Source: a virus | Reading direction: 5' to 3' (one strand) | Length of the DNA stretch: 64,000 bases | Virus record (IMG/VR): IMGVR_UViG_3300045988_136739 | In this document: positions 14,923-51,749 of the stretch, piece by piece | Layout: each line of letters opens with the position of its first letter | Position numbering within the stretch: the first letter of the stretch is position 1 | Notes under the pieces: model-generated | Databases searched by the model: none | Told to the model about the DNA's origin: nothing | What the model saw: only the letters and a program-made list of their open reading frames with translations | Program-made: the position numbers and the translations under genes

Positions 14923-15101
14923 AACCAAGATGCTTTAGGTGCGGGAAGGAAGCTGAAGAGTTTTCAGCTGTGAGCATCAGATGGAATACGTATAAAGGTT
15001 CTGGTAGTTGTTTCGCGGCTTTATGTAATAACTGTATTGATGATATTGAACCGCAAGTTAAAGTATTTACAGAAGATATTACAAAGGACGTGAATAAGTA
15101 A
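14913..15101 (+). CDS. small zinc-ribbon protein (CFRCG...CNNC)
   Basis: ATG 14913 with AGAGGA RBS. Confidence 0.5.
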   Translation: MDIKPRCFRCGKEAEEFSAVSIRWNTYKGSGSCFAALCNNCIDDIEPQVKVFTEDITKDVNK

Positions 15102-15370
15102 TGATTCAGATTAACAAACAGTATGCAATAAATCCATCGAAGTGGTCTTATGACCTTGTTCATTTTACTACTGATAAAGCTGGTAAGTAGGTAGCAGAAA
15201 CGCTTGGCTACTACCACGATTTTAATGCGGCGTTAAAAGGTTACATCAAAATCAGAGCTAGGCGTAAGCTATCACAGAAAGATATGTCGGTAGTGGAAGC
15301 AATTAAGGAAATTGAATCCATCCGTGATGAGGTGAAATCCATCTTGGGTGGAGGTGAATCCGATGGTTGA
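15101..15370 (+). CDS. hypothetical protein interrupted by in-frame TAG at 15188-15190
   Basis: continuous frame of 89 codons apart from one TAG; 3' end overlaps next gene start in ATGGTTGA arrangement. Confidence 0.4.
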
Positions 15371-15701
15371 TAGTATAATAGAGTTTGCCAATATTCATCC
15401 GTGGTTAACGGCAATGCCGTTTATAGTAATGGCTGTTGCCTATCTATTTATGTTAAATAATCGTGATACGTTGAGATGCAGAATACTTGCGCTTGATGCA
15501 ATTCGTGATTATAATATAGATGGGTATGTTTTGGACGGAAGAGATAAATGGAAACGGTTAAACTATGAAAAAGTAATGCAACCGTATTCTTATACTTGGT
15601 TTGCATTTGTTAAAAACGCAGAAGCGGTGATAAGACCGCAGTATTTAGATGTACTTGGAATTTATTTTGAAAATGCAAAAAAGTTTAGGAGATTTGATTG
15701 A
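15363..15701 (+). CDS. hypothetical membrane protein
   Basis: hydrophobic N-terminus; coupled start. Confidence 0.5.
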   Translation: MVDSIIEFANIHPWLTAMPFIVMAVAYLFMLNNRDTLRCRILALDAIRDYNIDGYVLDGRDKWKRLNYEKVMQPYSYTWFAFVKNAEAVIRPQYLDVLGIYFENAKKFRRFD

Positions 15702-17029
15702 TGTTCGACATCGACATTGAATATATTAAATGTACTTTGTTTTGTTCTAATCTTAGAATGCAAAGTAAGAAAGCTCTCAAAGAGTGGGTATTGAATAATT
15801 TCAGAAGTAAGGAGACAGATGAACTTCTGAAATTTTTGCTAGACAAAAACGTAACAACTGGTATATCTAGCGCAAGATTAAGCAAACATTTAGCAAAGGA
15901 ATTAGACCCTCATATTAACATGACGTTGCTAGATGTGTGTAAATATATTATGGACAACCCGGCGAATGATGATACGCTTTGGGTGGTTCAGTCATACGTG
16001 GAAAAGGTAAGACTTGCTTTTGAGGACAGACCAACCTTTAACAATGAAATTGCGTTTATACATGACGTGTTCACCAAACAACTGCGACTTGGCGTTGACG
16101 CAAAAACTGTCAATAGCGTGTATAGATGCAAGTTAATTCCAGTATTCGATGTCCAACTTGCAAAATCTATTGATAATGTTAAGATTCCACATGGCGAGTG
16201 GTTCTCTGTTAGTCAGAAAATTAACGGGAACAGATGTATTTGTTATCGTGGAAAAATGTATAGCAGACAGGGTAAGTTGTGGACTGGACTAGACCACATT
16301 ATGTCAGATTTAAAGAAATTGGAAGTAGAACTTCCGGTTTGGTGTCTTGATGGTGAACTTGTATATAAAAATAAGGAAGGATTGTCGGATAACGATGCTT
16401 TTACGAAAGGCACTGGTATTTTGAACAGTCCAGACTCTGATAAGTCTTGTATCAAGTATGTTATTTTCGACTGGATTTCTAACAGAGATTTTGATAATGG
16501 TATTTCTCAGGATTCGTACAAAGCTCGTAAAGATTTGTTGATTGAATTGTCTTACGACATTCATCGTCTCGGTATTGAAAATGTTGAGGTTGTAAGATTT
16601 TTCTATGAAGGTACTGATGAAACAAAGATTGATTATTGGCTCGACCGCGCCACGAAAGCTGGTATGGAAGGTGTAATGGTAAATTATGATGTGCCGTATC
16701 AGTGCAAGCGCCATTCTGGTATTCTGAAAGCAAAGCGATTCTATACAATAGACTTGCCAATTATTGGTTTTGATGCTGGTGATGGTAGACTTTCTAATAC
16801 GCTTGGTAAAATTTGGGTGATGTTCGACAATAATGCAGTTGGCGTTGGAAGCGGGCTTAGTGACGAACTTAGGGCTGAAATATGGTCAAATAAGAGGGAA
16901 TATTTCGGCAAAATTATTGAGGTGAAATATAAAAGTATATCTAAAGATAAGAACACTGGGTTACGTAGTTTGCAATTCCCTGTCTTTGTTAGATTTCGAG
17001 ATGATAAGAATGAACCCAGTTATGACTAA
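15698..17029 (+). CDS. ATP-dependent DNA ligase (motif I variant KINGNR)
   Basis: motifs KINGNR, LDGELV, EGVMVN, ILKAKR and C-terminal OB-domain end LQFPVFVRFRDDK. Confidence 0.8.
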   Translation: MMFDIDIEYIKCTLFCSNLRMQSKKALKEWVLNNFRSKETDELLKFLLDKNVTTGISSARLSKHLAKELDPHINMTLLDVCKYIMDNPANDDTLWVVQSYVEKVRLAFEDRPTFNNEIAFIHDVFTKQLRLGVDAKTVNSVYRCKLIPVFDVQLAKSIDNVKIPHGEWFSVSQKINGNRCICYRGKMYSRQGKLWTGLDHIMSDLKKLEVELPVWCLDGELVYKNKEGLSDNDAFTKGTGILNSPDSDKSCIKYVIFDWISNRDFDNGISQDSYKARKDLLIELSYDIHRLGIENVEVVRFFYEGTDETKIDYWLDRATKAGMEGVMVNYDVPYQCKRHSGILKAKRFYTIDLPIIGFDAGDGRLSNTLGKIWVMFDNNAVGVGSGLSDELRAEIWSNKREYFGKIIEVKYKSISKDKNTGLRSLQFPVFVRFRDDKNEPSYD

Positions 17030-17039
17030 GGAGATTGAG

Positions 17040-17556
17040 TATGTCTGATAAACTTGTTATTATTGATATGCAGAACGACTTTCATCCTAGCGACGAAGTG
17101 ATTAAGCGCGTGGTAGAAAAGATTGAAAAATATAAATCTAATAAGTGTAAGATTTATATGACAATGGATACCCATAGCGCAGATAGTTATGACACATTGC
17201 CTGAATCTAAGAAATACCCAATCCATTGTGTTATTGGGACTGACGGTCATGCGCTTGTAGATGATGTTGGAAAAGCGCTTGCACTCTATCGGCACGATTG
17301 CACTATTTGTTACAAAAATTCTTTTGGTTCTACAGAGCTTGTAAACGCATTGCTTCATGATTGTGTTCCGGGAGACAGAATTGAGATTTGTGGCGTTTGT
17401 GCTGACATCTGTGTTGTTTCAAATGCTCTTATGATTCGTTCAGCACTTTACAAGAATGAAGTGTTTGTGGATTCTTCGGCAACAGAAGGTACGACTGTTG
17501 ATGCGGCCAATGCAGCATTTACGGTTATGAGAAATTGTAACATTATTGTAAACTAA
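17040..17556 (+). CDS. pncA: nicotinamidase / isochorismatase-family cysteine hydrolase (PncA-like)
   Basis: LVIIDMQNDF, DTHSADSYD...PIHCVIGTDG metal site, EICGVCADICV catalytic Cys, closely paralleling PncA. Confidence 0.75.
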
Positions 17557-17595
17557 TTCGTGGGCGCATTGCGCCCATTTATTTTTGAAAACAGC

Positions 17596-17624
17596 TTGAC
17601 AAATCTCTGATTTTTTGGTATAAT
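17596..17624 (+). promoter_or_regulatory. promoter TTGACA-17-TATAAT (TG-extended)
   Basis: consensus; preceded by terminator tgggcgcattgcgccca at 17561. Confidence 0.6.
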
Positions 17625-17665
17625 ATTGGTGTAAAAGACACATATAAAGGAGTTGAAGATACTAT

Positions 17666-17781
17666 ATGTGCGTTATTACAAAGACTTTTGAGGTAGTCCT
17701 TATGACTGCTGGTGTTATGATGTTTCTTATGGCTGGATATAGAGTTGTAACCTATATCCGTAAGAATAAGAAGGAGAAGTA
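17666..17781 (+). CDS. small membrane protein (38 aa)
   Basis: ATG with AAGGAG RBS; hydrophobic. Confidence 0.4.
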
Positions 17782-17784
17782 ATT

Positions 17785-18483
17785 ATGTCGGTATACGTAA
17801 CAGGAGATACTCATTCGTATATTGATATTGACAAGATTACTCCAAGTCATTGGCTTGAATCTAATAATCTAACAGAAAAAGATACGCTTATCATCTGTGG
17901 TGACTTTGGCTTTGTGTGGGATGATGGATTTAGTGATAGGTGGTGGCAACAGTGGTTCTTGCGTAGGCCATATATTACTTGTTTTTGTGCCGGAAATCAC
18001 GAATGTCACCCGATGATTGAAAAATATCCTTTGGTTGATTTTCATGGTGACAAAGCACACAAAATTAACGACCATATTTATTGCTTTGTGCAAGGTGGTA
18101 TGTATGATTTTGACGGAAAGAAAATTTTTAGTTTTGGAAAAGCGCAAAGTCATGACAAGTGGTATAGAAAAGAAGGCGTTGACTGGTGGCGTGAGGAAAT
18201 GCCATCAGATGCAGAATATCAGTATGGAATTGATACATTAGAAAAATATAATTATAAATGTGATTATATAATTAGTCATTGCGCTCCAGATTCCGTTATG
18301 GATGCTATCGGCAATGGCGAATATAAACATGATAAGTTGACAAATTTTTTGCAAAAAGTTGTTGCTGAAGATGTTAAATTTGACCATTGGTACTTTGGTC
18401 ATTATCACATGGATTGTGATGTTGATGTAAAAGATGGAAACAAATATACTTGCGTATATCAAAATATTTACAAGGTGGTGTAA
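17785..18483 (+). CDS. calcineurin-like metallophosphoesterase
   Basis: GDTH, GDFGF, GNHE motifs. Confidence 0.7.
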   Translation: MSVYVTGDTHSYIDIDKITPSHWLESNNLTEKDTLIICGDFGFVWDDGFSDRWWQQWFLRRPYITCFCAGNHECHPMIEKYPLVDFHGDKAHKINDHIYCFVQGGMYDFDGKKIFSFGKAQSHDKWYRKEGVDWWREEMPSDAEYQYGIDTLEKYNYKCDYIISHCAPDSVMDAIGNGEYKHDKLTNFLQKVVAEDVKFDHWYFGHYHMDCDVDVKDGNKYTCVYQNIYKVV

Positions 18484-18485
18484 TA

Positions 18486-18920: not shown

Positions 18921-19119
18921 AAAGACTACAACAAGTGGTGTTGGATTTTTAGGTGTATTGCAGATTGTCTTGATTGTGCTTAAAGCATTTGGTTTGATTG
19001 ATTGGCCTTGGTTACTTGTACTCTTTCCTTTGTGGATTGAGTTTGCATTTGTTGCAGTAGTCTTAGTGTTTTATCTTATCGTTTGTATAATTGTGGCAGT
19101 CATTAGCGAATTTTTGTGA
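18907..19119 (+). CDS. small membrane protein
   Basis: two hydrophobic helices. Confidence 0.45.
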   Translation: MLVSKKTTTSGVGFLGVLQIVLIVLKAFGLIDWPWLLVLFPLWIEFAFVAVVLVFYLIVCIIVAVISEFL

Positions 19120-19708: not shown

Positions 19709-19720
19709 GAGGTGAATCTA

Positions 19721-19966
19721 ATGGAGTCTTATAAACTTGCACAGATGGTGTAGGTAATAAGAGAGGATGAGGGCATTTGCCCGTTGACGTTCTCTGAAAT
19801 TATGCAACATCATGGTGGATGTGTATTTGTTATCGGTGAGAAGTGTGGCTACGGTACTGTAGACGTAACTAAGATGGCTGTGCTTTTAGATGGCAAATAT
19901 GTTGATATCCATGGTTGTGGTACTGAATTTTACGCTTACGATATTAGGCCGTATAGCGTGAAATGA
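19721..19966 (+). CDS. hypothetical Cys-rich protein with in-frame TAG at 19751-19753
   Basis: strong GAGAGGTGA RBS 7 nt before ATG 19721; frame continuous through TAG into ORF 19784..19966 whose own ATG lacks an RBS. Confidence 0.45.
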
Positions 19967-20300
19967 ATTTTAAAAAAGTAAAAGTAAAAACAAAAATTGT
20001 AAAGTAAAAACAAAATGTAATACGTCGCCCTTCATATTATGAAGAATTATAACGATATACATTTTTGAAATTTTGTGGTTAGATTTGACTTGTGCATATC
20101 CCATGTCTAAACCGCAAATATGCAAATAATTCATTGGTTGTTCTAATCACATATTGGTAGTGTAATTATCCTTAAAATTGTATCATACAAAAAATAGCTT
20201 GCACTGTGTCATTTATCAATGCTTGTTAGTAAAGGACAATTTGCTATAATAAGAGATAGATAGCAATAAATAATAGATTAACACGAAAGGATAAATTGTT

Positions 20301-20371
20301 ATGATTGTCAATGGTAAGAGAGCTTTGTGCCTTACCGCGTCAGCGGTAAACAAAGGGCGCATCACAATGTA
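20301..20371 (+). other. upstream mini-ORF (23 codons) duplicating the RBS and first 9 codons of the RNA ligase gene, with two hairpins
   Basis: gaaaggataaattgttatgattgtcaatggtaag versus gaaaggataggttaaatatatgattattaacggtaaa. Confidence 0.4.
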
Positions 20372-20413
20372 AGAATAGCTTTATTTGATAAGTAGAAAGG
20401 ATAGGTTAAATAT

Positions 20414-21535
20414 ATGATTATTAACGGTAAACGCGCATTAGCATACGTAACTAAGATTGATGACATCGAACCGTTACAGGGATATGATAGGGTAGAGTAC
20501 GCTAGAGTAGGTGGATGGGGAGTCATTGTTTCCAAGGCTGACCAGTTTAAGTCCGGAGATAAGTGTGTTTATTTTGAGGTTGACTCTAAGGTAAATGCAG
20601 ATGACCCTCGGTTTGCTTTTATGGCAAAGCGTGACTATAAGGTTAAGTGCATTAAGATGTGCAAGGTATACTCTCAGGGCTTGATTATGCCTGTGAGTGC
20701 ATTTGATGAGTTAAAGGATGCAAATATCGGTGACGATGTTACTGATATTTTAAAGGTTCGCTATTCTGTCGAAGAGGATAACGCTCGTAAGTCGGATGTG
20801 GTTGAAAAGAAATTGACTTTCTTCGAGCGTATTAAGAATTTCTTTACTGGCAAGAAGGTAACTAATCCTCGCAAGTTCCCTACTAAGTTTGAGTACGTAA
20901 AGAAGTCGGACGAAGAGCGTGTTGAGAATATGCCATTTATTTTGAAGGACAAAGAGCCTTGGATTAAGACCCAGAAGATTGATGGAACTTCTTCTACTTA
21001 TATCATGGAAAAGAAGCCGTTTGGCCGTTGGGAATATTATGTATGTTCTCGCAATGTGCGTCAGCTTGACCGTAATCAGTTCACTTGGCACAATAAGGGC
21101 GGTAACGCTGAATCTAATGTGTACTGGGATATGAACGACAAGTATCATATTGATGAGTTCTTGAAGCGTTACATCAAGGATAATAACCTAAAGTATGCGG
21201 CATTGCAGGGTGAAACCGCTGGCCCTAATCTTCAGGGTAATCCTCACAAGTATGGTGAAGTACGTTTCTTTGGTTACAATTTGATTCGTTCTGACGTTGG
21301 GCGTATCAATTCTTTGGATGCAAAGAAGATTTGTAATGCTAATGGAATTGATTGGGTTCCTATCGCAGATGAGCATTATATCTTACCCGATGATATGGAG
21401 ACTTTAAAGCTGGATGCTGATGGTGAGTGTATTGTTGGCACTGGCTTGCGTGAAGGTTGGGTTTATCGTAGTCTTGACGGTCAGCGCTCTTTTAAGAATG
21501 TTAGCCGTAAGTATATGATGAAGCATGACGAATAA
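20414..21535 (+). CDS. ATP-dependent RNA ligase (Rnl-type nucleotidyltransferase with N-terminal extra domain)
   Basis: KIDGTS motif I (KxDG), downstream EGxxxK-like motifs, no DNA-ligase OB domain; separate DNA ligase is already present. Confidence 0.6.
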   Translation: MIINGKRALAYVTKIDDIEPLQGYDRVEYARVGGWGVIVSKADQFKSGDKCVYFEVDSKVNADDPRFAFMAKRDYKVKCIKMCKVYSQGLIMPVSAFDELKDANIGDDVTDILKVRYSVEEDNARKSDVVEKKLTFFERIKNFFTGKKVTNPRKFPTKFEYVKKSDEERVENMPFILKDKEPWIKTQKIDGTSSTYIMEKKPFGRWEYYVCSRNVRQLDRNQFTWHNKGGNAESNVYWDMNDKYHIDEFLKRYIKDNNLKYAALQGETAGPNLQGNPHKYGEVRFFGYNLIRSDVGRINSLDAKKICNANGIDWVPIADEHYILPDDMETLKLDADGECIVGTGLREGWVYRSLDGQRSFKNVSRKYMMKHDE

Positions 21536-21597: not shown

Positions 21598-21599
21598 AA

Positions 21600-32820: not shown

Positions 32821-32916
32821 ATGGGGTATTAGTCTAACTGGATAAAACATCACTCTCCTAAAGTGAATTTCTCCGTTCGAGTCGGGGATGCCCCACCAAA
32901 ATTTTTTCAAAACCAC

Positions 32917-32945
32917 TTGACAAATCGCAAAAAGTATGATAGAAT
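32917..32945 (+). promoter_or_regulatory. AAAACCACTTGACA-17-TAGAAT class promoter
   Basis: consensus family. Confidence 0.6.
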
Positions 32946-32983
32946 ATAGGTGTTCCAAGGGGAACAGAAAGAAGGTATATTAC

Positions 32984-33196
32984 ATGAAATGTGACGCTGT
33001 AAAAGTACACGAGTCGATTCCTATGACACCGAAACGTCTTTATGAGTGGGCTGTTGCAAACGGGGTACAGGATTGCCAGATGTATTTCCCAGCAGATGAG
33101 TTTATGACCGATGTTGACTTGACAATGGATTGTATGTGCAAAGAATATCGTGGTTTTGGTAAGAACAAGGAAATGGTAGTTAATATCTGTAGGTGA
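32984..33196 (+). CDS. hypothetical small Cys-rich protein
   Basis: ATG 32984 with GAAAGAAGG RBS. Confidence 0.45.
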   Translation: MKCDAVKVHESIPMTPKRLYEWAVANGVQDCQMYFPADEFMTDVDLTMDCMCKEYRGFGKNKEMVVNICR

Positions 33197-33203
33197 TTGT
33201 ACG

Positions 33204-33497
33204 ATGGTTTTTGTCTATGAGCTGAAATACGTTGATAAACGCAAATTAGTTCCAGTCACAGAGAGTCCGAAGATGAGGACAATCGCTACGGTGATTAACA
33301 AAGTCACTGGAAACGATGTTAAACGTCTGTATAATCGATTGAAGCGAAGTGGCAATATGCCACAGATGGAGCATCTAAAAGATGGGAACTACCGTGTTAT
33401 GTATATGGCACTGCCTAATGGGTTGAAGTTTGACCCATTCTATAAAGGTGGAACATATTACAGAGGAAGGAGCGTATTTGACCGTGATGACACTTGA
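33204..33497 (+). CDS. hypothetical protein
   Basis: ORF. Confidence 0.45.
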   Translation: MVFVYELKYVDKRKLVPVTESPKMRTIATVINKVTGNDVKRLYNRLKRSGNMPQMEHLKDGNYRVMYMALPNGLKFDPFYKGGTYYRGRSVFDRDDT

Positions 33498-34272
33498 TGA
33501 TAGAATGAAAACTTATTATGAGGGTGCATATCGTGTTTATCTGACGCGGCGTATGCCAGTCATTATCCGAATCGACTCTCGTGCTGGGCATACTTTCACA
33601 AAGAGTCTGAAGAAGCCTTTTGACGTAGTTTTCACTTCAACAATGCAGGATACAATGAAGTATCTGTGTGAAAACATTCAAGGCTGCGTTATCGGCTATA
33701 CACAGTCTGACGAGATTACTTTGTGTCTTGTTGATTATGACAAGCTGGAAACCGATGCTTGGTTTGGTTATAATCTAAACAAGCTGGTAAGTCTTACTGC
33801 ATCAATGGCTACGTTAGCATTTAATAAGTATTTTGAACGCAATGCTAATAGAACCCTCACCAAGATGGCATTGTCCTCTGGTGTGAATAAGTTTGAAATT
33901 GACGCTTACTCTGCTACATTGGCAAAGTGTAAAGAAAAGGGTTTGTGCTTCGATTCTCGCGCCTTTAATATCCCAAAGGAAGAGGTATGTAACTGTTTCT
34001 TATGGAGACAGCTTGACGCTTCTCGAAACAGTATTCAGGCGGTCGGTCAGGCAAACTTCTCGCATACTGTTCTGAATGGCAAGAGTACGTCTGAAATTCA
34101 GGATATGTTGATGACAGAAAAGGGTATCAACTGGAACGACCTTGCGACTGAATTAAAACGTGGCTCTTGCTGTGTACGAGATGGTAATGGCTGGTCTATT
34201 GACCACGAGATTCCCAAGTTTACTGGCGAAGGCCGTGACTATATTGATAAGCTGGTTTTTGTTGGAGAATAA
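33487..34272 (+). CDS. Thg1-like protein (tRNA-His guanylyltransferase family; 3'-5' nucleotidyltransferase / tRNA 5'-end repair)
   Basis: VIIRIDSRAGHTFTK (Thg1 VRIDGRxFHxF motif) and GYTQSDEITL (catalytic SDE) motifs. Confidence 0.8.
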   Translation: MTLDDRMKTYYEGAYRVYLTRRMPVIIRIDSRAGHTFTKSLKKPFDVVFTSTMQDTMKYLCENIQGCVIGYTQSDEITLCLVDYDKLETDAWFGYNLNKLVSLTASMATLAFNKYFERNANRTLTKMALSSGVNKFEIDAYSATLAKCKEKGLCFDSRAFNIPKEEVCNCFLWRQLDASRNSIQAVGQANFSHTVLNGKSTSEIQDMLMTEKGINWNDLATELKRGSCCVRDGNGWSIDHEIPKFTGEGRDYIDKLVFVGE

Positions 34273-34273
34273 A

Positions 34274-34474
34274 ATGCCTAAATATAGTTTTGATTTTAGG
34301 TACGCATACGGAAGTTGGACATTATGTAATTTGCGTTATGAGCATTATGACATTGATGCCCCTTCTGAAAAGGAAGCATTTAAAATCGCAGAAAAACAGT
34401 TCAATGAAACGCATAAATCTGCAATATGTGACCTCTATCGTGATAGTGATGGATGGCATAAACTTCTTTGGTGA
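34274..34474 (+). CDS. hypothetical small protein
   Basis: ATG immediately after upstream TAA. Confidence 0.4.
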   Translation: MPKYSFDFRYAYGSWTLCNLRYEHYDIDAPSEKEAFKIAEKQFNETHKSAICDLYRDSDGWHKLLW

Positions 34475-34749
34475 GTATGAACATTAACATTCCGTTTTCT
34501 TGCGGCGATGTTGTGTACGCTGTAAGACCTAAAAATATGTATAACAAGGAAGCCTATATTTATAAAGGCATTGTTATTTATATTAAAGTCGAGGTTGACC
34601 GTGACAATAAAGCTAAAATTATGGCGCACGTTCGTGACCTCGATGAGACTTTAAGCGTACCTAACATTATCTATCAGAACAGTGACAGTATCTACGCCAC
34701 TCTGGATGAAGCTAGGTCAGCTAATCCAGATGTTCTGATAAAAATTTAA
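34468..34749 (+). CDS. hypothetical small protein
   Basis: ORF. Confidence 0.4.
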   Translation: MVSMNINIPFSCGDVVYAVRPKNMYNKEAYIYKGIVIYIKVEVDRDNKAKIMAHVRDLDETLSVPNIIYQNSDSIYATLDEARSANPDVLIKI

Positions 34750-34768
34750 AAAATTTTTCCAAAACCCC

Positions 34769-34797
34769 TTGACAAATGACGAAAAATTTGATATAAT
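34769..34797 (+). promoter_or_regulatory. AAAACCCCTTGACA-17-TATAAT promoter driving the tRNA cluster
   Basis: perfect consensus 35 nt before first tRNA. Confidence 0.7.
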
Positions 34798-34832
34798 AAG
34801 GGTGTCAAGAGGAACGAAAGTTCCTCAAATAT

Positions 34833-34905
34833 ACGTTGGTAGTTTAACGGTAAAACAATGGCCTCCAAAGCCAGAAGATGATGGGTTCAAATCCCTCCCG
34901 GCGTG
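34833..34905 (+). tRNA. tRNA-Trp (anticodon CCA)
   Basis: hand-folded cloverleaf: acceptor acgttgg/ccggcgt (2 GU), D-stem gttt/aaac, anticodon loop ctCCAaa; weak T-stem. Confidence 0.55.
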
Positions 34906-34912
34906 TTTATAT

Positions 34913-34987
34913 GCGCTTATCGTTCAATGGATAGGACAAAACTCTTCTAAAGTTTTTATGTGGGTTCAATTCCTACTAGGCGTACCA
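34913..34987 (+). tRNA. tRNA-Arg (anticodon TCT), CCA encoded
   Basis: acceptor gcgctta/taggcgt, anticodon stem aaact/agttt, loop ctTCTaa, T-arm gtggg-ttcaatt-cctac. Confidence 0.75.
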
Positions 34988-34988
34988 C

Positions 34989-35074
34989 AGACGCATACAG
35001 CAATCCATAAATTTTAATGGTTTAAAAAGAATGCTTAAAACAATCTTTCACGGTTCGATTCCGTTCTGCGTCTA
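34989..35074 (+). tRNA. aberrant tRNA-like gene (perfect 7-bp acceptor agacgca/tgcgtct, T-arm, anticodon-like hairpin with loop ctTAAaa) with non-canonical spacing
   Basis: 86 nt; D-arm-like ccat-aaatttta-atgg displaced by extra nucleotides. Confidence 0.3.
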
Positions 35075-35151
35075 ATTTTTAGTTATTCTTCATCTTTATC
35101 TGAACTCGATAGACACGAACAGCAACACTTTCTTTGTTCGCGCCACTAATT

Positions 35152-35223
35152 GCGAATATAGTTTAGATGGTTAGAACGCCACACCAAAATGTGGAGACGT
35201 GGGTTCGAGTCCCACTTATAGTT
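35152..35223 (+). tRNA. tRNA-like element with canonical D-arm and T-arm but 6-nt anticodon loop and poorly paired acceptor (possible pseudo-tRNA)
   Basis: tagtttagatggttagaac D-arm, gtggg-ttcgagt-cccac T-arm, ccaca-ccaaaa-tgtgg. Confidence 0.3.
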
Positions 35224-35234
35224 GTGTCTAATAT

Positions 35235-35307
35235 GCCCGGTTAGTCAAGTTGGCTAAGACGAGTGACTCTCAATCACTAGGCGGCAGTTCAATCCTGCCA
35301 CCGGGTA
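35235..35307 (+). tRNA. tRNA-Glu (anticodon CTC)
   Basis: acceptor gcccggt/accgggt, anticodon stem agtga/tcact, loop ctCTCaa, T-arm ggcag-ttcaatc-ctgcc. Confidence 0.7.
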
Positions 35308-35313
35308 CTTTAT

Positions 35314-35345
35314 GGTCGAGTAGCTCAGTTGGTTAGAGCAGTAGA
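35314..35345 (+). pseudogene. 5' tRNA fragment (acceptor strand + perfect D-arm tagctcagttggttagagc) lacking a 3' half
   Basis: no matching ctcgacc acceptor strand found downstream; abuts endonuclease gene. Confidence 0.45.
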
Positions 35346-35376
35346 TAAATGGGGTATGAATATGGTAAATTCAAAG

Positions 35377-36114
35377 ATGAAAGGCAATATTGCAGAGTCG
35401 CGTATTTTATATGAATTTGTTTAGAGAGGAATACCAGTTTCAATACCTTACGGCGATAATGAACGCTATGATATGATAGCGGAATTTAATGGAAAGCTGA
35501 ATAAGATACAGATAAAGTTCTGCAATCAACAAATAGTTGATGGTTCGATAAGCTGTCCATGTTCTAATATAGTAAATCCATTAACAAAAAGTAAGCATAG
35601 AGAATTATATGTTAATGATGTTGATTATATGGCATTTTACATATATGTATGGGATGTTGCTGTTATAATTCCAACAAGTTACATAGGGAATAGGATTCAG
35701 ATAAAGATTAGAAAAGAACGTGCAAAGAACAATCAAACTACAGCTTCTACATTTGTTGATGACTTTACTTTTGATAAAATTGTTGGAGTAGATGTTCGTA
35801 ATGTGATAGAAGAACAACAAAATGTATATGAAAAAGCATATAATAGATGTGTTGATTGCGGATGTGCCATATCGGATAGGGCTGTGAGATGTTTAAGGTG
35901 TAGAAATTTGAAGCAATATGAAGAAACAGCAAATCCGAATATGATAGATAGAGACACGCTTAAATCCATGATTAGAAATATGCCATTTAAGCATATCGCA
36001 TCTATATGTGGAGTTTCAGATAACTGTATTAGAAATTGGTGTAAAAGATATAATCTTCCATATCGTACATCTGACATTAAGAAATATACAGATGACGAGT
36101 GGAGTGATGTATAA
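35377..36114 (+). CDS. putative PD-(D/E)XK-type (Hjc-like) endonuclease with C-terminal Cys cluster/HTH, possible homing endonuclease; in-frame TAG at 35422-35424
   Basis: N-terminal domain GNIAESRILYEFV-[TAG]-RGIPVSIPYGDNERYDMIAEFNGKLNKIQIK continuous across the TAG; CVDCGC...CLRC; inserted inside tRNA cluster. Confidence 0.5.
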
Positions 36115-36222
36115 TTTTTAGCTAATTACAAAAACAATATCCTACTGACATAATAATACCCATTTTTTCGGTTTGGATAACAGCGCATAGCCATAAAAGT
36201 CTAGGATTATTGGATAAGCTAA

Positions 36223-36251
36223 CAATGACTGCTGGAAAGACAGCAATTTAT
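36223..36251 (+). repeat. 25-nt exact repeat atgactgctggaaagacagcaatttat (hairpin tgctg-gaaaga-cagca) immediately upstream of a tRNA; second copy at 37843-37870
   Basis: identical sequence before tRNA-Arg(ACG) and tRNA-Ile(GAT). Confidence 0.6.
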
Positions 36252-36253
36252 AT

Positions 36254-36330
36254 GCGGCAGTAGTTCAACTGGATAGAACAATCGGCTACGAACCGATAGG
36301 TTGCGAGTTCGAGTCTTGTCTGTCGTACCA
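36254..36330 (+). tRNA. tRNA-Arg (anticodon ACG), CCA encoded
   Basis: acceptor gcggcag/ctgtcgt (2 GU), D gttc/gaac, anticodon stem atcgg/ccgat, loop ctACGaa. Confidence 0.8.
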
Positions 36331-36452
36331 GATAAGTGAGTCTTAAATTACGTTGGACAAAGGGTAGCCTTTTATGGGAGACTGTTACGACAGTAACCCC
36401 GATTATCGGTGACAATGCTAACTCATAAGAGTGCGTAAGCCGACATTTATAT

Positions 36453-36538
36453 GTGTATGTATCCGAATTGGCATAGGAGCTGCTTTGAGATGGCAGTGTC
36501 GCAAGACATTGTGGGTTCAAGTCCCACCATGCACACCA
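36453..36538 (+). tRNA. tRNA-Leu (anticodon GAG), type II with long variable arm, CCA encoded
   Basis: acceptor gtgtatg/catgcac, loop ttGAGat, variable hairpin tgtc-gcaa-gaca, T-arm gtggg-ttcaagt-cccac. Confidence 0.7.
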
Positions 36539-36541
36539 GAA

Positions 36542-36662
36542 TACAGTATGGTTTCAATGGTAAAACATCACCCAAATAAGAATGTGTCTATATAGACATA
36601 AGCCGCAATTATTTTTCTTAAAAGCCAAGGTGAAGATGTCGGTTCGACCCCGACTGCTGTAT
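36542..36662 (+). ncRNA. tRNA-like gene with about 50-nt expansion of the anticodon loop
   Basis: acceptor tacagta/tgctgta, D-arm gttt-caatggta-aaac, anticodon-type stem tcacc/ggtga enclosing a 56-nt loop with the palindrome tgtctatatagaca, perfect T-arm gtcgg-ttcgacc-ccgac. Confidence 0.4.
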
Positions 36663-36669
36663 TTATTAT

Positions 36670-36745
36670 GCGAGATTAACTCAACTGGAAGAGTGCCACT
36701 CTTACAAAGTGGAAGGTACAAGTTCGAGTCTTGTATTTCGCACCA
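36670..36745 (+). tRNA. tRNA-Val (anticodon TAC), CCA encoded
   Basis: acceptor gcgagat/atttcgc, D actc/gagt, stem ccact/agtgg, loop ctTACaa, T-arm acaag-ttcgagt-cttgt. Confidence 0.8.
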
Positions 36746-36833
36746 TACGACAGTTTATAAGCAAAACAAGTTCTGTCGGTGATAAGACAAAAGACTTAAT
36801 TGGCGGTTGAGTGACCTTAAACTCACCATTATG

Positions 36834-36949
36834 GCTGTGTAGCTCAATAGGCTAGAGCGCGTAAAACCTATCTATTTTAGATAGTAACAGCTACACATTT
36901 TTCCATTATAAGGACGAGGTTTATGGTTCGAGTCCATACGCAGCCACCA
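36834..36949 (+). ncRNA. tRNA-like gene (acceptor, D-arm, T-arm, CCA) with about 40-nt insertion in the anticodon/variable region
   Basis: acceptor ggctgtg/cgcagcc, D-arm tagctcaataggctagagc, T-arm tatgg-ttcgagt-ccata, internal hairpin ctatc-tatttta-gatag; no canonical anticodon arm. Confidence 0.4.
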
Positions 36950-36970
36950 AAAATCTAAAAAAGAAGGGAA

Positions 36971-37243
36971 ATGAATCCGATGCAGTAGATTGATAATAAT
37001 AATCCTATGGTTTTCTTTCAAATGTTGGGTGAAGTTGCCGGTGATAACATCATGAGCAAGATTTCCCGACTAAAGATTAGTGAAGAAAATGGAATTGTTA
37101 CTTTATATCTAAGAGATGAACGTGAACCGTTTAACGATAGTGAACTTAGACAGCTAAGATACATCTTAGAAAGATGGTATGATATAATTTCTTTTAGGCG
37201 TGAAGATAGGCTTACTATGTTAGATATGAAGGTAAGAAAATAA
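36971..37243 (+). CDS. small hypothetical protein with in-frame TAG at 36986-36988
   Basis: AGAAGGG RBS + ATG 36971, 5 codons, TAG, then continuous with ORF 37007..37243. Confidence 0.35.
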
Positions 37244-37341
37244 CCCTCCTTTATTTTTATATATAAAAAGACACATCCAGCAAACTTTTATTAAATTTTG
37301 AGTAGCCTTATGATTCAATTTTTAATGTGTCTTTTAGATTT

Positions 37342-37429
37342 GCCAGTGTAGTTCAGTTGGTAGAACGCGGGTTTTGTAATCCCGATGCCGAAAGGGTTCT
37401 CGCAGGTTCAAGTCCTGTCACTGGCTCCA
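37342..37429 (+). tRNA. tRNA with long variable arm; anticodon ambiguous (TGT or GTA within ttttgtaat loop)
   Basis: perfect acceptor gccagtg/cactggc, D gttc/gaac, 4-bp anticodon stem cggg/cccg, 17-nt variable arm, T-arm gcagg-ttcaagt-cctgt, CCA. Confidence 0.55.
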
Positions 37430-37430
37430 T

Positions 37431-37506
37431 GCCACTTTAATTCAGTAGATAGAATGATGCGTTCGTACCGCATACGTCGTAGGTTTAATTCCTACAGGTG
37501 GCTCCA
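37431..37506 (+). tRNA. tRNA-Thr (anticodon CGT), CCA encoded
   Basis: acceptor gccactt/aggtggc, stem atgcg/cgcat, loop ttCGTac, T-arm gtagg-tttaatt-cctac. Confidence 0.75.
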
Positions 37507-37644
37507 ATCGCACCTATACCGTGGTAGAATAGGTATAGGCAAGTATTTTAACTACCGTGTCCATAGAGTTAATGGACTTGGGAGGTACTGACAAGACAGA
37601 AGAGCAAGTACCATGCACGTGGGCGGGTATTCGTGCTTTCATTT

Positions 37645-48200: not shown

Positions 48201-48406
48201 TGAAACAGCGTGAATCTGTTGAGCCTTGGGGCGTTATCATTGATGCGCAGTCCATTGGTTCTGGTAAGCGTAGTTCTTATACAGTTCCTTACAAACTGTA
48301 TAAGAAATGCAAGTTCAATAAGAATGATGTAATTAAGATTCGTGATTGGTATAAGAACAAGCGTGGTTACTTCTATATTACTGATTATGAATTTGTGGTT
48401 ATGTAA
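45215..48406 (+). CDS. dnaE: DNA polymerase III alpha subunit (DnaE-type, PHP domain N-terminus)
   Basis: HLHTMLSNAV...FSEHGN PHP motifs; 1063 aa co-linear with DnaE. Confidence 0.9.
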   Translation: MANYTVYHLHTMLSNAVTNIDSVTTYKQYIEKAKACGMTAMAFSEHGNIFEWVHKKDAIEAAGMKYIHAMEAYLTERIPDEGEEKIRDNYHCVLIARNWEGVKELNVLQGKAFNRVDGHYYYAPRITFAELFSTSNNIIITTACVASALCRGTESAKESYLRFLTRHKDRCFLEVQHHNTQKQFEYNRYLANLSKETGLRLIAGTDTHCLNAEHELGRSALQRGKGVFFDDEVGWDLTWKTYDELVEAYRTQDALSEEEYMSAINNTNVMADMIETFELDRSFKYAKIYDDGEKVLREKLFAPETIEPIIKEGFSREEVTARLEQEIDTFKALNATDFILLEDHIVRWEHSHDMWQGPARGSAASSLALYALGVTEVNPLKYGFYFWRFMDKSKYSLADVDMDNSAKDRDKLKFWMLNDHLDLPNVKTCEIITFNTIALKGAIRDIGRGLDMPLDEVDTIAKAVHEVAVDEEKIVTIDDSWRKKYPELFKYVDIVIGTIVSIGSHPSGVVVSDHDIESEFGLCYLKDDPYPVSCINMKELDSLNFTKQDALGLDNVGIINETCKLAGIERLSPKTIDFEDDAVWNSIKEDTSLIFQMNSNYGQRTVDKMLSPEVYNKIKKQIPNMTRLDLLTFINALIRPCGKGVYDDATNGIVSKTGIKEIDNLLGSSMGYAIMQEPQMAFVQEFCGYDFLRADKLRKIIGKKLGTRDQLPIIKEGWEKNAKVKYHLTDEQSDKIINPFLQCILDATRYSFSLVHSLSYSCISYECAYLRYHYPLQYLTSCLNAWNGDDNKTAEAIEYANSRKVKILAPKFRHAKAEYFYDLATNSIYKGTSSIKGLNAGYSDFLYSLKDNTYKTFTDLLYDIQASGMPRDQVETLIKLDYFEEFGTCRELVTIFKQFQFFKKGEAKTIAKSKIPDEITMNIIKRNANETEKQFNKLNCHNILNEIEQYIMTMNLGDVDIKTKIANQLEYMGYIGIKTDKSEDRPKIVILEMKVMKQRESVEPWGVIIDAQSIGSGKRSSYTVPYKLYKKCKFNKNDVIKIRDWYKNKRGYFYITDYEFVVM

Positions 48407-48417
48407 GGAGATGTTTT

Positions 48418-48654
48418 ATGTGGTTACTTTGTAGCGTATCAGATAATGAGCTTTTTGCTCCAATTGTTTGTAGCTCTAAAGAGATTGCGTTAAGAAAGAT
48501 GGATTGGAACGTCAATCTTATCCTTAATGATTTAGATAATGAAAATGTTGATTATGATACGCATGTTGGTTCTGATGGGTTAAGCTATCAGATTGTATGT
48601 GACGACAATGTTTGGACTTGGAAGATTTTCCATTTGAAAATGAAGGTGGCGTAA
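48418..48654 (+). CDS. hypothetical protein
   Basis: ORF with AAGGAG RBS. Confidence 0.5.
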   Translation: MWLLCSVSDNELFAPIVCSSKEIALRKMDWNVNLILNDLDNENVDYDTHVGSDGLSYQIVCDDNVWTWKIFHLKMKVA

Positions 48655-48655
48655 A

Positions 48656-48919
48656 ATGAAGGTAGAAATTTCTTACGATAAGATTGAGACGCTTGATGGG
48701 AAAAAGGTGAAACTTGACGTTGACAAGATTCTGTCACGTAAGTTGTCTGTTGCAGATAGATTTAGAAAGTTCTTGCTAAAGAATAGGGATGTTGTGTTTA
48801 CTGCGGTTGACACAAAGAAGGGTACTAAGTTTACTGGTATTGCTTACGAACTAGCAGAAGACAGCTCTCCTGTCAAGTGGTTATTTTATACCGATGATTT
48901 AATTGCTATCGAGGAGTGA
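48656..48919 (+). CDS. hypothetical protein
   Basis: ORF. Confidence 0.5.
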   Translation: MKVEISYDKIETLDGKKVKLDVDKILSRKLSVADRFRKFLLKNRDVVFTAVDTKKGTKFTGIAYELAEDSSPVKWLFYTDDLIAIEE

Positions 48920-49422
48920 TTTTTATACATAAGGTTATTGTTATCAATGGTATGCCGAGAAGTGGTAAAGATACCTTTGTGTCGCTTGTAAGTAAATATG
49001 CTACAACTACTAATTTTTCAAGCGTTGACTTCGTAAAAGATGTAGCGCGGTTCGCTGGATGGAATGGCGAGAAAGACCCAAGGTCGCGTTTGTTTCTCAG
49101 TAAGCTAAAGGAACTGCTTGCTGAATATGACGATATCCCATATAAGAAAATTGCAGAAGAGATTCACTGGTTTAAAAACCAGCCAGAACAGGAGCTTCTG
49201 TTTATACATATCAGAGAGCCGGGGGAGATTGCACGTATTGTGAGAGACTTCGGTGCAATGACAGTTTTAGTTAAACGTTCCAACAATCAGCAAGTTGTAT
49301 CTAATGATTCTGATAAATACACGGAGTCTTATAATTACGATTTCGTTTTGAATAATGATAGTGACCTTGATGCTCTAGATGCAAAAGCAAGAGGTTTTGT
49401 AAACTATTTAAAAAGAGGCTAA
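48916..49422 (+). CDS. deoxynucleoside monophosphate kinase (T4 gp1-like P-loop)
   Basis: VIVINGMPRSGKDT resembles T4 dNMP kinase GVKRSGKDT. Confidence 0.55.
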   Translation: MIFIHKVIVINGMPRSGKDTFVSLVSKYATTTNFSSVDFVKDVARFAGWNGEKDPRSRLFLSKLKELLAEYDDIPYKKIAEEIHWFKNQPEQELLFIHIREPGEIARIVRDFGAMTVLVKRSNNQQVVSNDSDKYTESYNYDFVLNNDSDLDALDAKARGFVNYLKRG

Positions 49423-49433
49423 GGAGTATAACG

Positions 49434-49946
49434 ATGGTTAAGTTTGAAAAGATTAGTTATGAGCAGTTTGAAAAAGATTATGTCGCAATTTTCGGTGATG
49501 AAATTGAAAAGGGTTGTATCAAGAATATCTATGATAATTTGAGACTTCCGAGACGTAGCACTACAGGCTCTTGCGGTTATGATTTCTTTAGTCCATTCGA
49601 GTTCATTCTTGAAGAGCCTAACGCAGAGCTTATTATTCCAACTGGTATCCGTGCGATTATGGACGATGATAAGTTTTTGATGATTGCACCTCGTAGTGGT
49701 CTTGGCACTAGGCACTATATGCGTCTTGCCAATACTATCGGTATCGTAGACAGTGACTATTCTAAGTCTGATAACGAAGGTCATATCTTTATTAAGTATC
49801 GTCTTGAAAATCACAACTCTGATAGTGTAAATGTAAAAACTGGAATGGCTATTGCACAGGGTATCTTTATGAATTATCTAAAGACGAATGACGATGATGC
49901 GGACGGTGTTCGTAATGGTGGATTCGGTAGCACTGACAAGAAATGA
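49434..49946 (+). CDS. dut: dUTP diphosphatase
   Basis: RSGLG, GIVDSDY, GGFGSTD motifs. Confidence 0.75.
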   Translation: MVKFEKISYEQFEKDYVAIFGDEIEKGCIKNIYDNLRLPRRSTTGSCGYDFFSPFEFILEEPNAELIIPTGIRAIMDDDKFLMIAPRSGLGTRHYMRLANTIGIVDSDYSKSDNEGHIFIKYRLENHNSDSVNVKTGMAIAQGIFMNYLKTNDDDADGVRNGGFGSTDKK

Positions 49947-49955
49947 GGTAATTTA

Positions 49956-50417
49956 ATGCTAAAAGAAAAGATAAGGTCTGCTCCACCGGATGTTGAACGT
50001 TTATACGCTATGACACCAAAAGATTTTGTTATGCGGTGTTGCGTTCCGTGGCAAGGCGCAGAGGTCGATTTTCCAGAATTTAACAAATATGGATATACAG
50101 TGACTGGAATTTATGAGAAGTGGCATTGGTATACTGTCGCTGATGTTACACACAATCCAAATGGTGAATACGATGTTATTGATAATGTGACACCAGAAGA
50201 AGCATATAAGATGGTTGCTCTTACAACTGCCTATTGGCAACCTATGCACAATAAGCAGTCTAAAGAATATCAGGAATACGAACGGCTTGACATGATTCGC
50301 AGACTGTTTATGCGTCATCCAGAACAGAGGGCTGAATATTTCAAAGAATGCCCAGACGAAAAAGACGTATATTATAAGAGATTCCCGGAGGAAAAGGAAC
50401 TATATGAAACTGAGTAA
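49956..50417 (+). CDS. hypothetical protein
   Basis: ORF. Confidence 0.5.
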   Translation: MLKEKIRSAPPDVERLYAMTPKDFVMRCCVPWQGAEVDFPEFNKYGYTVTGIYEKWHWYTVADVTHNPNGEYDVIDNVTPEEAYKMVALTTAYWQPMHNKQSKEYQEYERLDMIRRLFMRHPEQRAEYFKECPDEKDVYYKRFPEEKELYETE

Positions 50418-50964
50418 TTTCTTTTTACATTTAAAGAAAATTCTTGTTCATAAGTATTGGGTATTTTACTTCTGTTGTAAGGCTGGTATTCCTTGGCAGG
50501 GAATTACCCATGACCTTAGTAAATTCTCACCAGTCGAGTTTTGGGAAAGCGTAAAGTATTATCAGGGTAATAGAAGCCCTATTGACGCTTGTAAGGAAGA
50601 GAATGGTTACTCTATGGCGTGGCAACACCATAAAGGACGCAACCCGCATCATTATGAGTATTGGCAAGATAACTTTGATAAAGGTGGGGAACCGTTAAAG
50701 ATGCCATATAAATATGCACTTGAAATGGTATGTGATTATCTTGGTGCAGGACGAGCATATATGGGCAAATCTTTTACATTAGAGAAAGAATGGCAATGGT
50801 GGCTTGGCAAGTGCTCCAAGCCTATTGCGATGCACCCACAAACTAAGAAGTTTGTAAATAGTATGCTTTGGGAGATTAAAGAAGATAATTCTTATGACGC
50901 ACTGAAAGACTATTCACGTGCGATTTATGATAGTGCAAATATTGATACTGAGGTGGTTTTTTGA
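50404..50964 (+). CDS. hypothetical His-rich protein (possible metal-dependent hydrolase)
   Basis: HDLSKF...HHKGRNPHHYEYW. Confidence 0.4.
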   Translation: MKLSNFFLHLKKILVHKYWVFYFCCKAGIPWQGITHDLSKFSPVEFWESVKYYQGNRSPIDACKEENGYSMAWQHHKGRNPHHYEYWQDNFDKGGEPLKMPYKYALEMVCDYLGAGRAYMGKSFTLEKEWQWWLGKCSKPIAMHPQTKKFVNSMLWEIKEDNSYDALKDYSRAIYDSANIDTEVVF

Positions 50965-51749
50965 TTGATGTCAAATCTTATGTTTAGAAGCGAAAGACGG
51001 ATGTACAAGATTATTTATCTAAAATAAAGCCGTCGAGGGATACACTCGTAATAATCCAGTTTGGAGACAATCCGGCAAGCAATGCTTATGTAAATGGAAA
51101 GATACGTGATTGCGAAGAAGTTGGATTGCGCACGATAATATATAAACTTCCAGTAGATACGGAATATGCAGAAGCGTTGAGAATTTTAATAATGTCGCAA
51201 GAAAATTCAAAGGTCGCTGGTGTTATAGTTCAGTTGCCTGTTCCAGAACATCTAAAAGGAATTGCGACACATATTAAACCAGAGTTTGATGTTGATGGTT
51301 TTTTACCTAATACTAAGTTCGTCCCTGCAACTCCAAAAGGGGTAATTGAGTTATTGGACAACGAACTCAATTATAATTTTGTTGGAAAAGTTTGTACAGT
51401 AATTGGTAAAAGTCATATAGTAGGCGAGCCATGTGCAAATTTAATTAAGGGGCGTGGGGCAACAGTAATTTGGTGTGATAGTCATACAGTTGATTTAAAA
51501 AAATGGTGTTTACAATCAGATTTAATTGTGACAGCTACTGGTAGACCGGGACTAATTACACCAGATATGATTAGGCCAGAAACTGTAGTGATTGATGTCG
51601 GGATTACTCGTGGTGGTGATGGTAAGTTGTGCGGTGATGTTGATAAGTCTTGTTACTCTGATGATGCGCTAATTACACCAGTACCCGGTGGCGTAGGACT
51701 TCTTACACGAGTTGCATTACTTGAAAATTTAGTATATGAGGTGAAATGA
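50961..51749 (+). CDS. folD: bifunctional methylene-THF dehydrogenase/cyclohydrolase FolD homolog with in-frame TAG at 50985-50987
   Basis: TTG start overlapping upstream TGA with GAGGTGG RBS; N-terminal MIDVKSYV-[TAG]-KRK...LVIIQFGDNPASNAYVNGKIRDCEEVG aligns with FolD KIIDGK...LAVILVGDNPAS; C-terminal VIGKSHIVGEPC...PVPGGVG. Confidence 0.7.

Follow-up and report, generated by a model that had tools for sequence, protein, structure and literature searches.

In-frame TAG codons, very probably read as glutamine, in a lineage of large human-gut phages with a candidate five-arm suppressor tRNA

We analysed a stretch of 64,000 nucleotides (nt) of the virus record IMGVR_UViG_3300045988_136739 from IMG/VR (the window), in which TAG stands inside conserved genes and is absent from gene ends. 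TAG in this phage is very probably translated as glutamine (NCBI translation table 15; our probability is about 0.9), most likely by a suppressor tRNA of its own. The window is phage DNA of 39% G+C, the early and middle part of a ~150-kb tailed human-gut phage whose host is probably in Bacillota. Two IMG/VR contigs, of 149.8 kb and 148.6 kb, match it at 97-99% identity, and it is one of a large number of related human-gut metagenome contigs of 130-158 kb. The genome outside the window was read from the 149.8-kb contig, IMGVR_UViG_3300045988_127389, which is ~97% identical to the window and was walked via eight viral scans. Relatives were metagenome contigs from IMG/VR, ENA and Logan, labelled L002, L003, L008, L143, L144 and so on. 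Recoding of TAG to glutamine is already known in gut phages (crAss-like, Lak, Agate, Phass-1) and is seen here in an undescribed lineage; the odd suppressor tRNA is the sole potentially new element.

Stop codons at gene ends and inside genes

Terminal stops were counted in the window over a greedy set of 110 non-overlapping open reading frames (ORFs) of at least 60 amino acids (aa). TAA ended 60 of them, TGA 45 and TAG five. The five TAG-ended ORFs were the following.

424-843 (-), antisense to a + strand gene called in six relatives
2984-3217 (+), called as a gene in 0 of 6 relatives
38071-38334 (+), lying on a tRNA-Ser gene, an artefact
38680-39210 (+), SLT-domain ORF, with 60 further open codons to the TGA at 39391-39393
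59136-59552 (-), antisense to + strand genes, an artefact

The five are thus artefacts, an uncalled ORF or the SLT gene, and no confident TAG-terminated gene was found in the window. The first-pass annotation had claimed that TAG is never a terminal stop, and with 105 of the 110 ORFs ending in TAA or TGA this claim held. TAG makes up 17% of the stop trinucleotides on the + strand. At that share, one TAG stop or none among 95-105 genes has a probability of ~1e-7, and at an assumed share of 10% the probability is ~2-5e-4. The coding-density comparison proposed earlier gave the same picture: ORF coverage of the window was 87.2% under the standard code and 90.9% with TAG read as sense, while TAA or TGA read as sense gave 88.5% and 85.0%, respectively.

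Six TAG codons had been reported inside genes (15188, 19751, 35422, 36986, 39208 and 50985), and all were found in frame at these positions. The list was however incomplete, as three additional sites were identified at 13925, 14084 and 42429. The genes that carry TAG in the window are as follows.

13811-14185 (+), gene of a 124-aa Cys-rich protein, two TAGs at 13925-13927 and 14084-14086
15101-15370 (+), 89-aa gene, TAG 15188-15190 at codon 30
19721-19966 (+), 81-aa gene, TAG 19751-19753 at codon 11
35356-36114 (+), PD-(D/E)XK (PDDEXK_5) homing-type endonuclease, TAG 35422-35424 at codon 23
36971-37243 (+), 90-aa gene, TAG 36986-36988 at codon 6
38680-39393 (+), secreted SLT-domain transglycosylase, TAG 39208-39210 at codon 177, then 60 codons to TGA
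42399-43199 (+), gene called from ATG 42510 in the standard code, TAG 42429-42431 at about codon 11
50961-51749 (+), FolD (methylene-tetrahydrofolate dehydrogenase/cyclohydrolase), TAG 50985-50987 at codon 9

FolD had been described as a single gene interrupted by TAG, and the protein domain indeed runs across the codon: positions 1-115 of the PF00763 profile correspond to FolD residues 2-112, with the TAG at residue 9. The start codon TTG 50961 overlaps the upstream TGA and lies behind GAGGTG, and the next in-frame start after the TAG is TTG 51126, past the GDNPAS motif. In related 130-kb phages, more than 20 homologues of FolD begin with this N-terminus, and with one exception they carry Gln at the TAG position. 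The TAG itself is present in six contigs, with local identity down to 87%.

A single nuclease domain also spans the TAG of the endonuclease, as had been proposed. Positions 2-137 of the PF11645 profile match residues 5-139, a stretch that includes the TAG at residue 23 (E = 3e-21), whereas the start of the gene had to be corrected to ATG 35356. The same TAG occurs in L003. The endonuclease gene is an insertion and stands in place of the last 45 nt (3' end) of a tRNA-Phe(GAA) gene. This tRNA gene is cut after the anticodon stem in the window (35311-36115 for the two genes) and is intact in L008 (819-895) and L010, both of which are without the endonuclease segment. Here the homing-type gene has wrecked the tRNA gene that it targeted, rather than occupying a spliceable intron.

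Conservation among relatives placed the TAG codons of the short genes inside coding sequence as well. The 15101 gene begins with its start overlapping the upstream stop (TAATG) and ends in overlap with the next gene, which starts from ATG 15364 behind GGAGGTG. Its peptide is conserved on both sides of codon 30 in six relatives (65-99% identity), five of which keep the TAG. The remaining one, L144, has Pro there and carries a TAG at the position of Gln-7 of the window. All internal stops of this gene in the relatives are TAG, and the terminal stops are TGA. In the 19721 gene six relatives (77-95% identity) retain the TAG, with extra TAGs in L143 at Gln-8 and in L144 at His-30 of the window protein. 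The upstream ATG behind GAGGTG noted earlier at this site stood, with the gene start corrected to ATG 19721. The version of the 36971 gene in L003 (83% identity) keeps the upstream start as GTG and keeps the TAG, but a one-codon in-frame deletion follows the TAG and the alternative start Met (37007) is changed to Ile. Because L003 has lost the downstream Met and kept the upstream start and the TAG, translation of this gene must start upstream of the TAG, in agreement with its first description.

Two of the three additional sites lie in the 13811 gene, which is hidden under the standard code and occupies a gap at 13838-14167. Six metagenome relatives conserve the whole frame of 124 aa (50-95% aa identity). 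All six have the TAG at 13925, and five have Gln at 14084. L143 and L144 contain further in-frame stops in this frame (the codon type of those stops was not read). The third site lies in the 42399 gene, where all seven differences from L002 between the TAG and 42510 are synonymous and in third position; upstream of 42399 a terminator hairpin and frame-breaking indels were seen. The SLT site is the weakest of the nine. The frame stays open for 60 codons past the TAG, as had been stated, and the chance of this is P ~0.045. The SLT domain covers residues 51-160 of the protein, and the TAG is retained in five relatives, the lone change in the extension being V to A in L002. The homologue in L007 (49% identical) has Asn at the aligned TAG position and is ~25 residues longer.

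Taken over the relatives, independent metagenome assemblies keep the TAG codons and their flanking peptides while other positions vary. Internal stops were TAG in every case where the codon was read, and terminal stops were TAA or TGA. The dnaE gene (45215-48406) and the primase-helicase gene (43214-45202) contain zero in-frame TAG codons, as the first-pass annotation had said. Several further TAG candidates were rejected. Those at 20393/20402 are non-coding, with a 1-nt indel among relatives, and stand beside a duplicated gene start; the one at 54048 is an artefact of a 240-bp inverted segment; 37349/37361, 35164-35278 and 38153 lie on tRNA genes; and 39929, 56692/56710, 61929, 12720 and 8082 are probably located 5' of the true starts.

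The nucleotides after TAG had earlier been given some weight, the following codon being described as G- or A-initial in five of the six cases. It is so in all six, but a special context was not supported. Over 50 TAG sites the next base was A in 21, G in 17, C in seven and T in five, which did not differ from the first base of all codons (chi-square p = 0.35). Because of this match the recurrent 'tag gta' reflects the usual codon bias, and it is no signal for readthrough. The lack of a nucleotide context after TAG points to reassignment rather than site-specific readthrough.

The recoded codon is enriched in the late genes as compared to the early genes. In the 149.8-kb contig a convergent late block starts immediately right of the window end. 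Under the standard code this block appears as fragmented ORFs with TAG ends, and ORF coverage of the late region increases from 77-86% to 90-95% when TAG is read as sense. The following late ORFs are then fused.

Tape-measure-like ORF, 2061 aa, with 12 in-frame TAGs
Late protein of 1311 aa
Portal-like late protein of 535 aa
BppU-like fibre ORF
Reverse transcriptase ORF, its open frame extending past TAG

Many essential structural genes contain one to three in-frame TAGs each. TAG density is ~3-4 per 1000 codons in the late genes (7-10% of Gln codons); the early/middle block has ~0.6 per 1000, counted on curated sites (nine window sites, ~2% of Gln codons). The reverse transcriptase (YMDD motif) is encoded at 15072-16229 (-) of L040, ~12-13 kb right of the window end and by the tail-fibre genes, with in-frame TAGs, and it may belong to a diversity-generating retroelement. 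After the TAG it has the segment W.AHAEHGNSYRL, which is presumably typical of the C-terminal ends of reverse transcriptases.

Glutamine correspondence and a candidate suppressor tRNA

The residues aligned with TAG were counted on a composite genome consisting of the window and the flanks of the ~97%-identical 149.8-kb contig. At the TAG sites of the phage, CAG or CAA accounted for 35 of the ~70 site-by-codon alternatives in the relatives. Where a relative alone has TAG, the phage has Gln at 28 of 44 sites. The exchange between TAG and CAG/CAA is therefore seen in both directions, and because relatives carry CAG/CAA at the TAG sites and vice versa, the meaning of TAG is read as Gln. Stop-codon recoding, which the first-pass annotation had offered beside regulated amber suppression, is thus upheld by domains that span TAG, by TAG codons conserved together with their flanks, by the interchange with CAG/CAA, and by late genes that are sensible only with TAG as a sense codon.

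No tRNA with anticodon CUA was found in the window by ARAGORN (default settings, lowered thresholds, introns allowed) or with Rfam at permissive E-values. The earlier statement that such a tRNA is lacking was therefore correct within the window, but it does not hold for the 97-99%-identical genomes, in which a non-canonical tRNA(CUA) is located ~17.7 kb upstream. ARAGORN on the whole genome reported three tRNA arrays, none with anticodon CUA, and a regular-expression scan of the walked genome for a CUA anticodon arm plus T loop gave nothing convincing; it overlooked the actual candidate, in which the T stem is bulged.

L138 8166-8265 = L137 1171-1270, and L139 ~2398-2497 (+), tRNA(CUA), 100 nt with 3' CCA, corresponding to window coordinate -17663

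The Rfam tRNA model matches 97 nt of this locus (L138 8166-8262) with 42.3 bits, the gathering score being 29. The anticodon loop reads CUCUAAA, and the sequence has U1-A72, G73, a UGGGG 5' end and a 25-nt insertion in the variable region. The minimum-energy fold and the centroid fold are the same five-arm cloverleaf. The extra arm, ACAGGA-CUCUGAC-UCCUGU (6 bp with a 7-nt loop), is a copy of the anticodon arm of tRNA-Gln(CUG), and the 3' two-thirds of the tRNA are homologous to tRNA-Gln genes. The sequence is identical in two contigs that are 97-99% identical to the window. It sits in a tRNA array beside a ROOL RNA and among + strand early genes. The ROOL RNA (Rfam RF03087, 305 bits) was located between tRNA genes at L138 9518-10082.

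The five-arm tRNA(CUA) is probably the suppressor. No other tRNA-like gene with CUA is known from this genome, which clearly must have such a decoder. The more distant relatives (DnaE 44-53%) have an ordinary 75-nt tRNA(CUA) with tRNA-Gln features. One distant contig, L023 (DnaE 46%), carries an 87-nt class-II tRNA(CUA), with a long variable arm, at 16026-16112. Its anticodon arm presumably matches that of E. coli tRNA-Tyr except for G34 to C, in the manner of supF. If the arm is Tyr-like, the amino acid that TAG encodes may differ between branches of this phage group.

A more specific proposal, which we regard as tentative and rather unlikely, is that the suppressor is a five-arm tRNA, with acceptor stem, D arm and T arm of the normal kind, whose variable arm has been selected as an anticodon mimic, with the CUA arm decoding UAG. 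The mimic arm would offer the Gln-charging enzymes the G36-containing anticodon that they require, and the CUA arm would read UAG on the ribosome. Selection of the extra arm is suggested because the variable arm of a Sup-CTA tRNA in the very distant phage Phass-1 likewise shows CUG. If true, the mimic arm would be a natural answer to the poor charging of amber-suppressor tRNA-Gln, and an identity mimic of this kind would be of interest for tRNA biology and genetic-code engineering. Nothing was found in a literature search on anticodon-mimicking variable arms.

Proposed decoding and alternative explanations

We propose that a phage tRNA with anticodon CUA and an acceptor stem of tRNA-Gln type would be charged with Gln by host enzymes and, once charged, would compete with host release factor 1 at UAG. 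Its location among + strand early genes suggests that it would be expressed early. Genes bearing TAG would be delayed until the suppressor accumulates, and full-length late proteins would be made only once it is active. The few early TAG-bearing proteins (FolD, the homing endonuclease and the SLT lysin) would likewise await an active suppressor, so that these three could be gated together with the late genes. Because TAG is a sense codon, selection would keep it off the gene ends, which leaves TAA and TGA as terminal stops.

Several observations speak against this proposal or limit it. The window is without a CUA tRNA, and the suppressor is taken from contigs 97-99% identical to the window instead of its own contig. 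The tRNA(CUA) is non-canonical (100 nt, five arms, bulged T stem) and is undetected by ARAGORN. By sequence homology the locus is equally readable as a tRNA-Gln(CUG) with a 25-nt D-loop insertion that carries a CUA hairpin, and as all copies are identical there is no covariation. Some TAG sites pair with Lys, Glu or Asn in relatives, as expected at variable positions, which makes Gln a statistical call. The SLT extension is without homologue-based support beyond its conservation in close relatives. Finally, a check for the GGQ motif in class-I release factor context, which is a weak test, showed no release factor in the genome.

Leaky or programmed readthrough would explain part of the data, and we consider it quite improbable. 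TAG would then still be a stop, which some ribosomes pass at certain sites by means of near-cognate tRNAs such as tRNA-Gln(CUG) of the host or the phage; no dedicated suppressor would be needed, and extended products would appear at a regulated low level. The sparse TAGs of the window agree with this, and so do the tRNA-Gln(CUG) that one near-identical contig also encodes, the possibility to draw the CUA-bearing locus as a tRNA-Gln(CUG), and the SLT site with its resemblance to a C-terminal extension. However, a low efficiency would be insufficient for 12 TAGs in the tape-measure-like gene and for the one to three TAGs in many essential structural genes, and a stop at codon 9 would abolish FolD. 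Readthrough also finds no sequence context after TAG, and it does not predict the complete avoidance of terminal TAG.

Reassignment of TAG to a residue other than Gln, such as Tyr by a supF-like tRNA, pyrrolysine, Lys or Glu, is in our estimate very improbable. The class-II tRNA(CUA) of the distant relative L023, with its presumed Tyr-like anticodon arm, would agree with it, as would the Lys, Glu and Asn found at some aligned TAG sites, and ARAGORN calls CUA tRNAs 'Pyl'. Against this, Gln is by far the top partner of TAG in both directions of the comparison, the TAG of FolD and that at 14084 align with Gln, and the tRNA(CUA) has the U1-A72, G73 and UGGGG of tRNA-Gln, its 3' two-thirds being 79% identical to annotated phage tRNA-Gln genes. 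Pyrrolysine-type decoding is further at odds with a CUA tRNA that is Gln-like and with TAGs that run across structural genes and align with Gln (an explicit search for pyl genes was not made).

That the TAGs are true stops, in pseudogenes, amber mutants or assembly errors or ahead of downstream starts, is already largely refuted and hardly credible: the endonuclease, as a mobile insertion that wrecked a tRNA gene, could be decaying, and for several sites at codons 6-11 a downstream start is imaginable, but the same TAGs recur in many independent assemblies of different samples, the peptides upstream of them are conserved and part of Pfam domains, downstream starts are missing (FolD) or unconserved (the 36971 gene in L003), and the internal stops that were read are always TAG, never TAA or TGA.

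Other features of the window and comparison with recoded phages

The gene blocks of the window and its tRNA genes are arranged as follows.

1-6400 (+), small early genes with long gaps between them
6.5-12 kb (minus strand), a short block
~12.1 kb to the window end (+), a long replication and nucleotide-metabolism block (primase-helicase, DnaE, FolD, ThyX)
32823-38362 (+), tRNA array with 13 canonical tRNAs, none CUA
35003-35072, 35152-35223, 36542-36664 and 36833-36949, aberrant tRNA-like genes in this array

The four aberrant tRNA-like loci were considered as hidden suppressors and rejected, since none has CUA in a plausible anticodon loop. The two conserved tRNA genes at 36542-36664 and 36833-36949 have anticodon-loop inserts of ~50 nt, each with its own small hairpin (TGTCTATATAGACA and CTATCTATTTTAGATAG, respectively). 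A group I intron would be longer than either insert. In the 36542-36664 tRNA, compensatory changes were seen among relatives in the acceptor, anticodon and T stems, and because of these changes we regard it as a maintained RNA. Together with the five-arm candidate suppressor, the insert-bearing tRNAs are the parts of this genome that deserve attention. At 35003-35072 and 35152-35223 lie two degenerate sequences, probably tRNA genes in decay. A score of 22.9 bits and a loop like that of Leu(UAA) mark one of them; the second reaches 43.6 bits, with an anticodon loop of 6 nt and three mismatches in the acceptor stem. The second tRNA array, in L124, gave weak Rfam matches at 4236-4374 and 5304-5403, to the HDV-like ribozyme of F. 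prausnitzii (21 bits, E ~1) and to a YrlA Y-RNA-like element (39 bits, below the gathering score). An ORF of ~245 aa lies between tRNA-Met and tRNA-Asn in L124, and the two tRNA genes are adjacent in L125 and L128.

Some differences between the window and its relatives were found outside the TAG-bearing genes. The segment 54017-54256 (240 bp) is inverted as compared to the relatives checked (L008, L030). It is bounded by perfect 14-bp inverted repeats, AGTAGTTTTTTATT and AATAAAAAACTACT (54003-54270), and the inversion shortens a D12-type adenine methyltransferase to 171 aa from the 251 aa of the relatives; the segment is either invertible (phase-variable) or an assembly artefact. At 20300-20414 the 5' end of the 20414 gene (MIINGKRAL...) is repeated ~110 nt upstream, and the element between the two copies of the gene start is missing from L146, an arrangement that resembles a small insertion with target duplication. 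In L009 and L010 the match to dnaE (10001-14543) is 4.5 kb long and not 3.2 kb. An additional 1.36 kb, absent from the window, maps to window position 46869-46874; it could represent an intein, or else an intron that contains a homing endonuclease gene.

The closest GenBank record to the window is MT835481, an unverified and unannotated faecal scaffold (DnaE 59%). Beyond it the next-closest are phages of Clostridioides, Bacillus, Thomasclavelia and Enterocloster, and a host in Bacillota is presumed because of these. Among 50,697 phage records no megablast match was found for window 43000-52000. When 185,579 species genomes were scanned for the terminase, the sole match was a 2.3-kb fragment in a Bacteroidales metagenome-assembled genome, which is uninformative on the host. 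The lineage is abundant in the human gut, as one window protein was present in 35 to 46 public assembly index blocks. When the lineage is annotated with the standard code, some of its genes are broken or go unseen, among them FolD, the lysin, the tape measure, the portal and the whole 124-aa gene, and translation table 15 should be used for it.

Recoded gut phages were surveyed by Borges et al. (bioRxiv 10.1101/2021.08.26.457843), who describe six further recoded clades, including Agate (154 +/- 27 kb). The recoded clades in general are predicted there in Firmicutes or Bacteroidetes, in hosts of standard code. In these clades the recoded stop gathers mainly in the structural and lysis genes, being variable or sparse among replication genes; the phages encode their own suppressor tRNAs, and an early homing endonuclease is preferentially recoded. 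The present lineage resembles the Agate clade in its ~150-kb genome, the late-gene pattern of recoding and the in-frame recoded stops in an early homing endonuclease, a likeness of size and pattern only. It differs in that the Agate lineage detailed there is TGA-recoded, whereas TAG is recoded here, and in that RF2 is described in two TAG-recoded Agate phages, with none seen here by the GGQ check, weak as this test is. The preprint also states that non-canonical suppressor tRNAs may escape detection, and the tRNA(CUA) described here would be a concrete case of those that earlier surveys suspected to be missing.

Phass-1 (OQ749652; Babkin et al. 2023, PMC10607447) is a 136-kb human-gut phage of the proposed genus Phassvirus in which TAG encodes Gln. 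It has a long tape-measure gene typical of siphovirus morphology, DNA polymerase III alpha and 36 tRNAs, three of them Sup-CTA tRNAs, and TAG interrupts 41 of its ORFs, those of the portal, the tape measure and the large terminase subunit included. Phass-1 does not encode a synthetase, and a member of Clostridia is its probable host (PMC10607447). The order of arms in its Sup-CTA tRNA is the same as in the tRNA(CUA) of the present lineage, and both have a variable arm that displays CUG; in the 88-nt Sup-CTA of Phass-1 (OQ749652 62445-62532) this is a long variable arm with the loop CUCUGAA. The Sup-CTA genes of Phass-1 are however canonical and found by standard tools, in contrast to the single five-arm gene here that was missed by ARAGORN. 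Members of Phassvirus share 80-86% nucleotide identity (PMC10607447), whereas the amino acid identity between Phass-1 and the present phage is 23% for DnaE, 20% for TerL and 20% for the portal, which places the latter outside the genus. It thus stands for a new TAG-to-Gln lineage, distant from Phass-1 and with kin mainly among Bacillota phages.

For two crAss-like phages, Peters et al. 2022 (PMC9523058) report metaproteomic proof that TAG encodes Gln. NCBI lists the Lak megaphages in its 'Caudoviricetes code 15 clade'. The present phage agrees with these code-15 phages in that TAG is read as Gln and late genes are recoded, but crAss-like and Lak phages are unrelated lineages with Bacteroidota hosts and another genome architecture. 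An amber suppressor that inserts Gln is known also from E. coli, in which supE is a point mutant of tRNA-Gln with anticodon CUA that reads UAG with partial suppression. Unlike supE, the candidate suppressor described here is a phage gene with an extra arm, and it would serve a genome that has been purged of terminal TAG.

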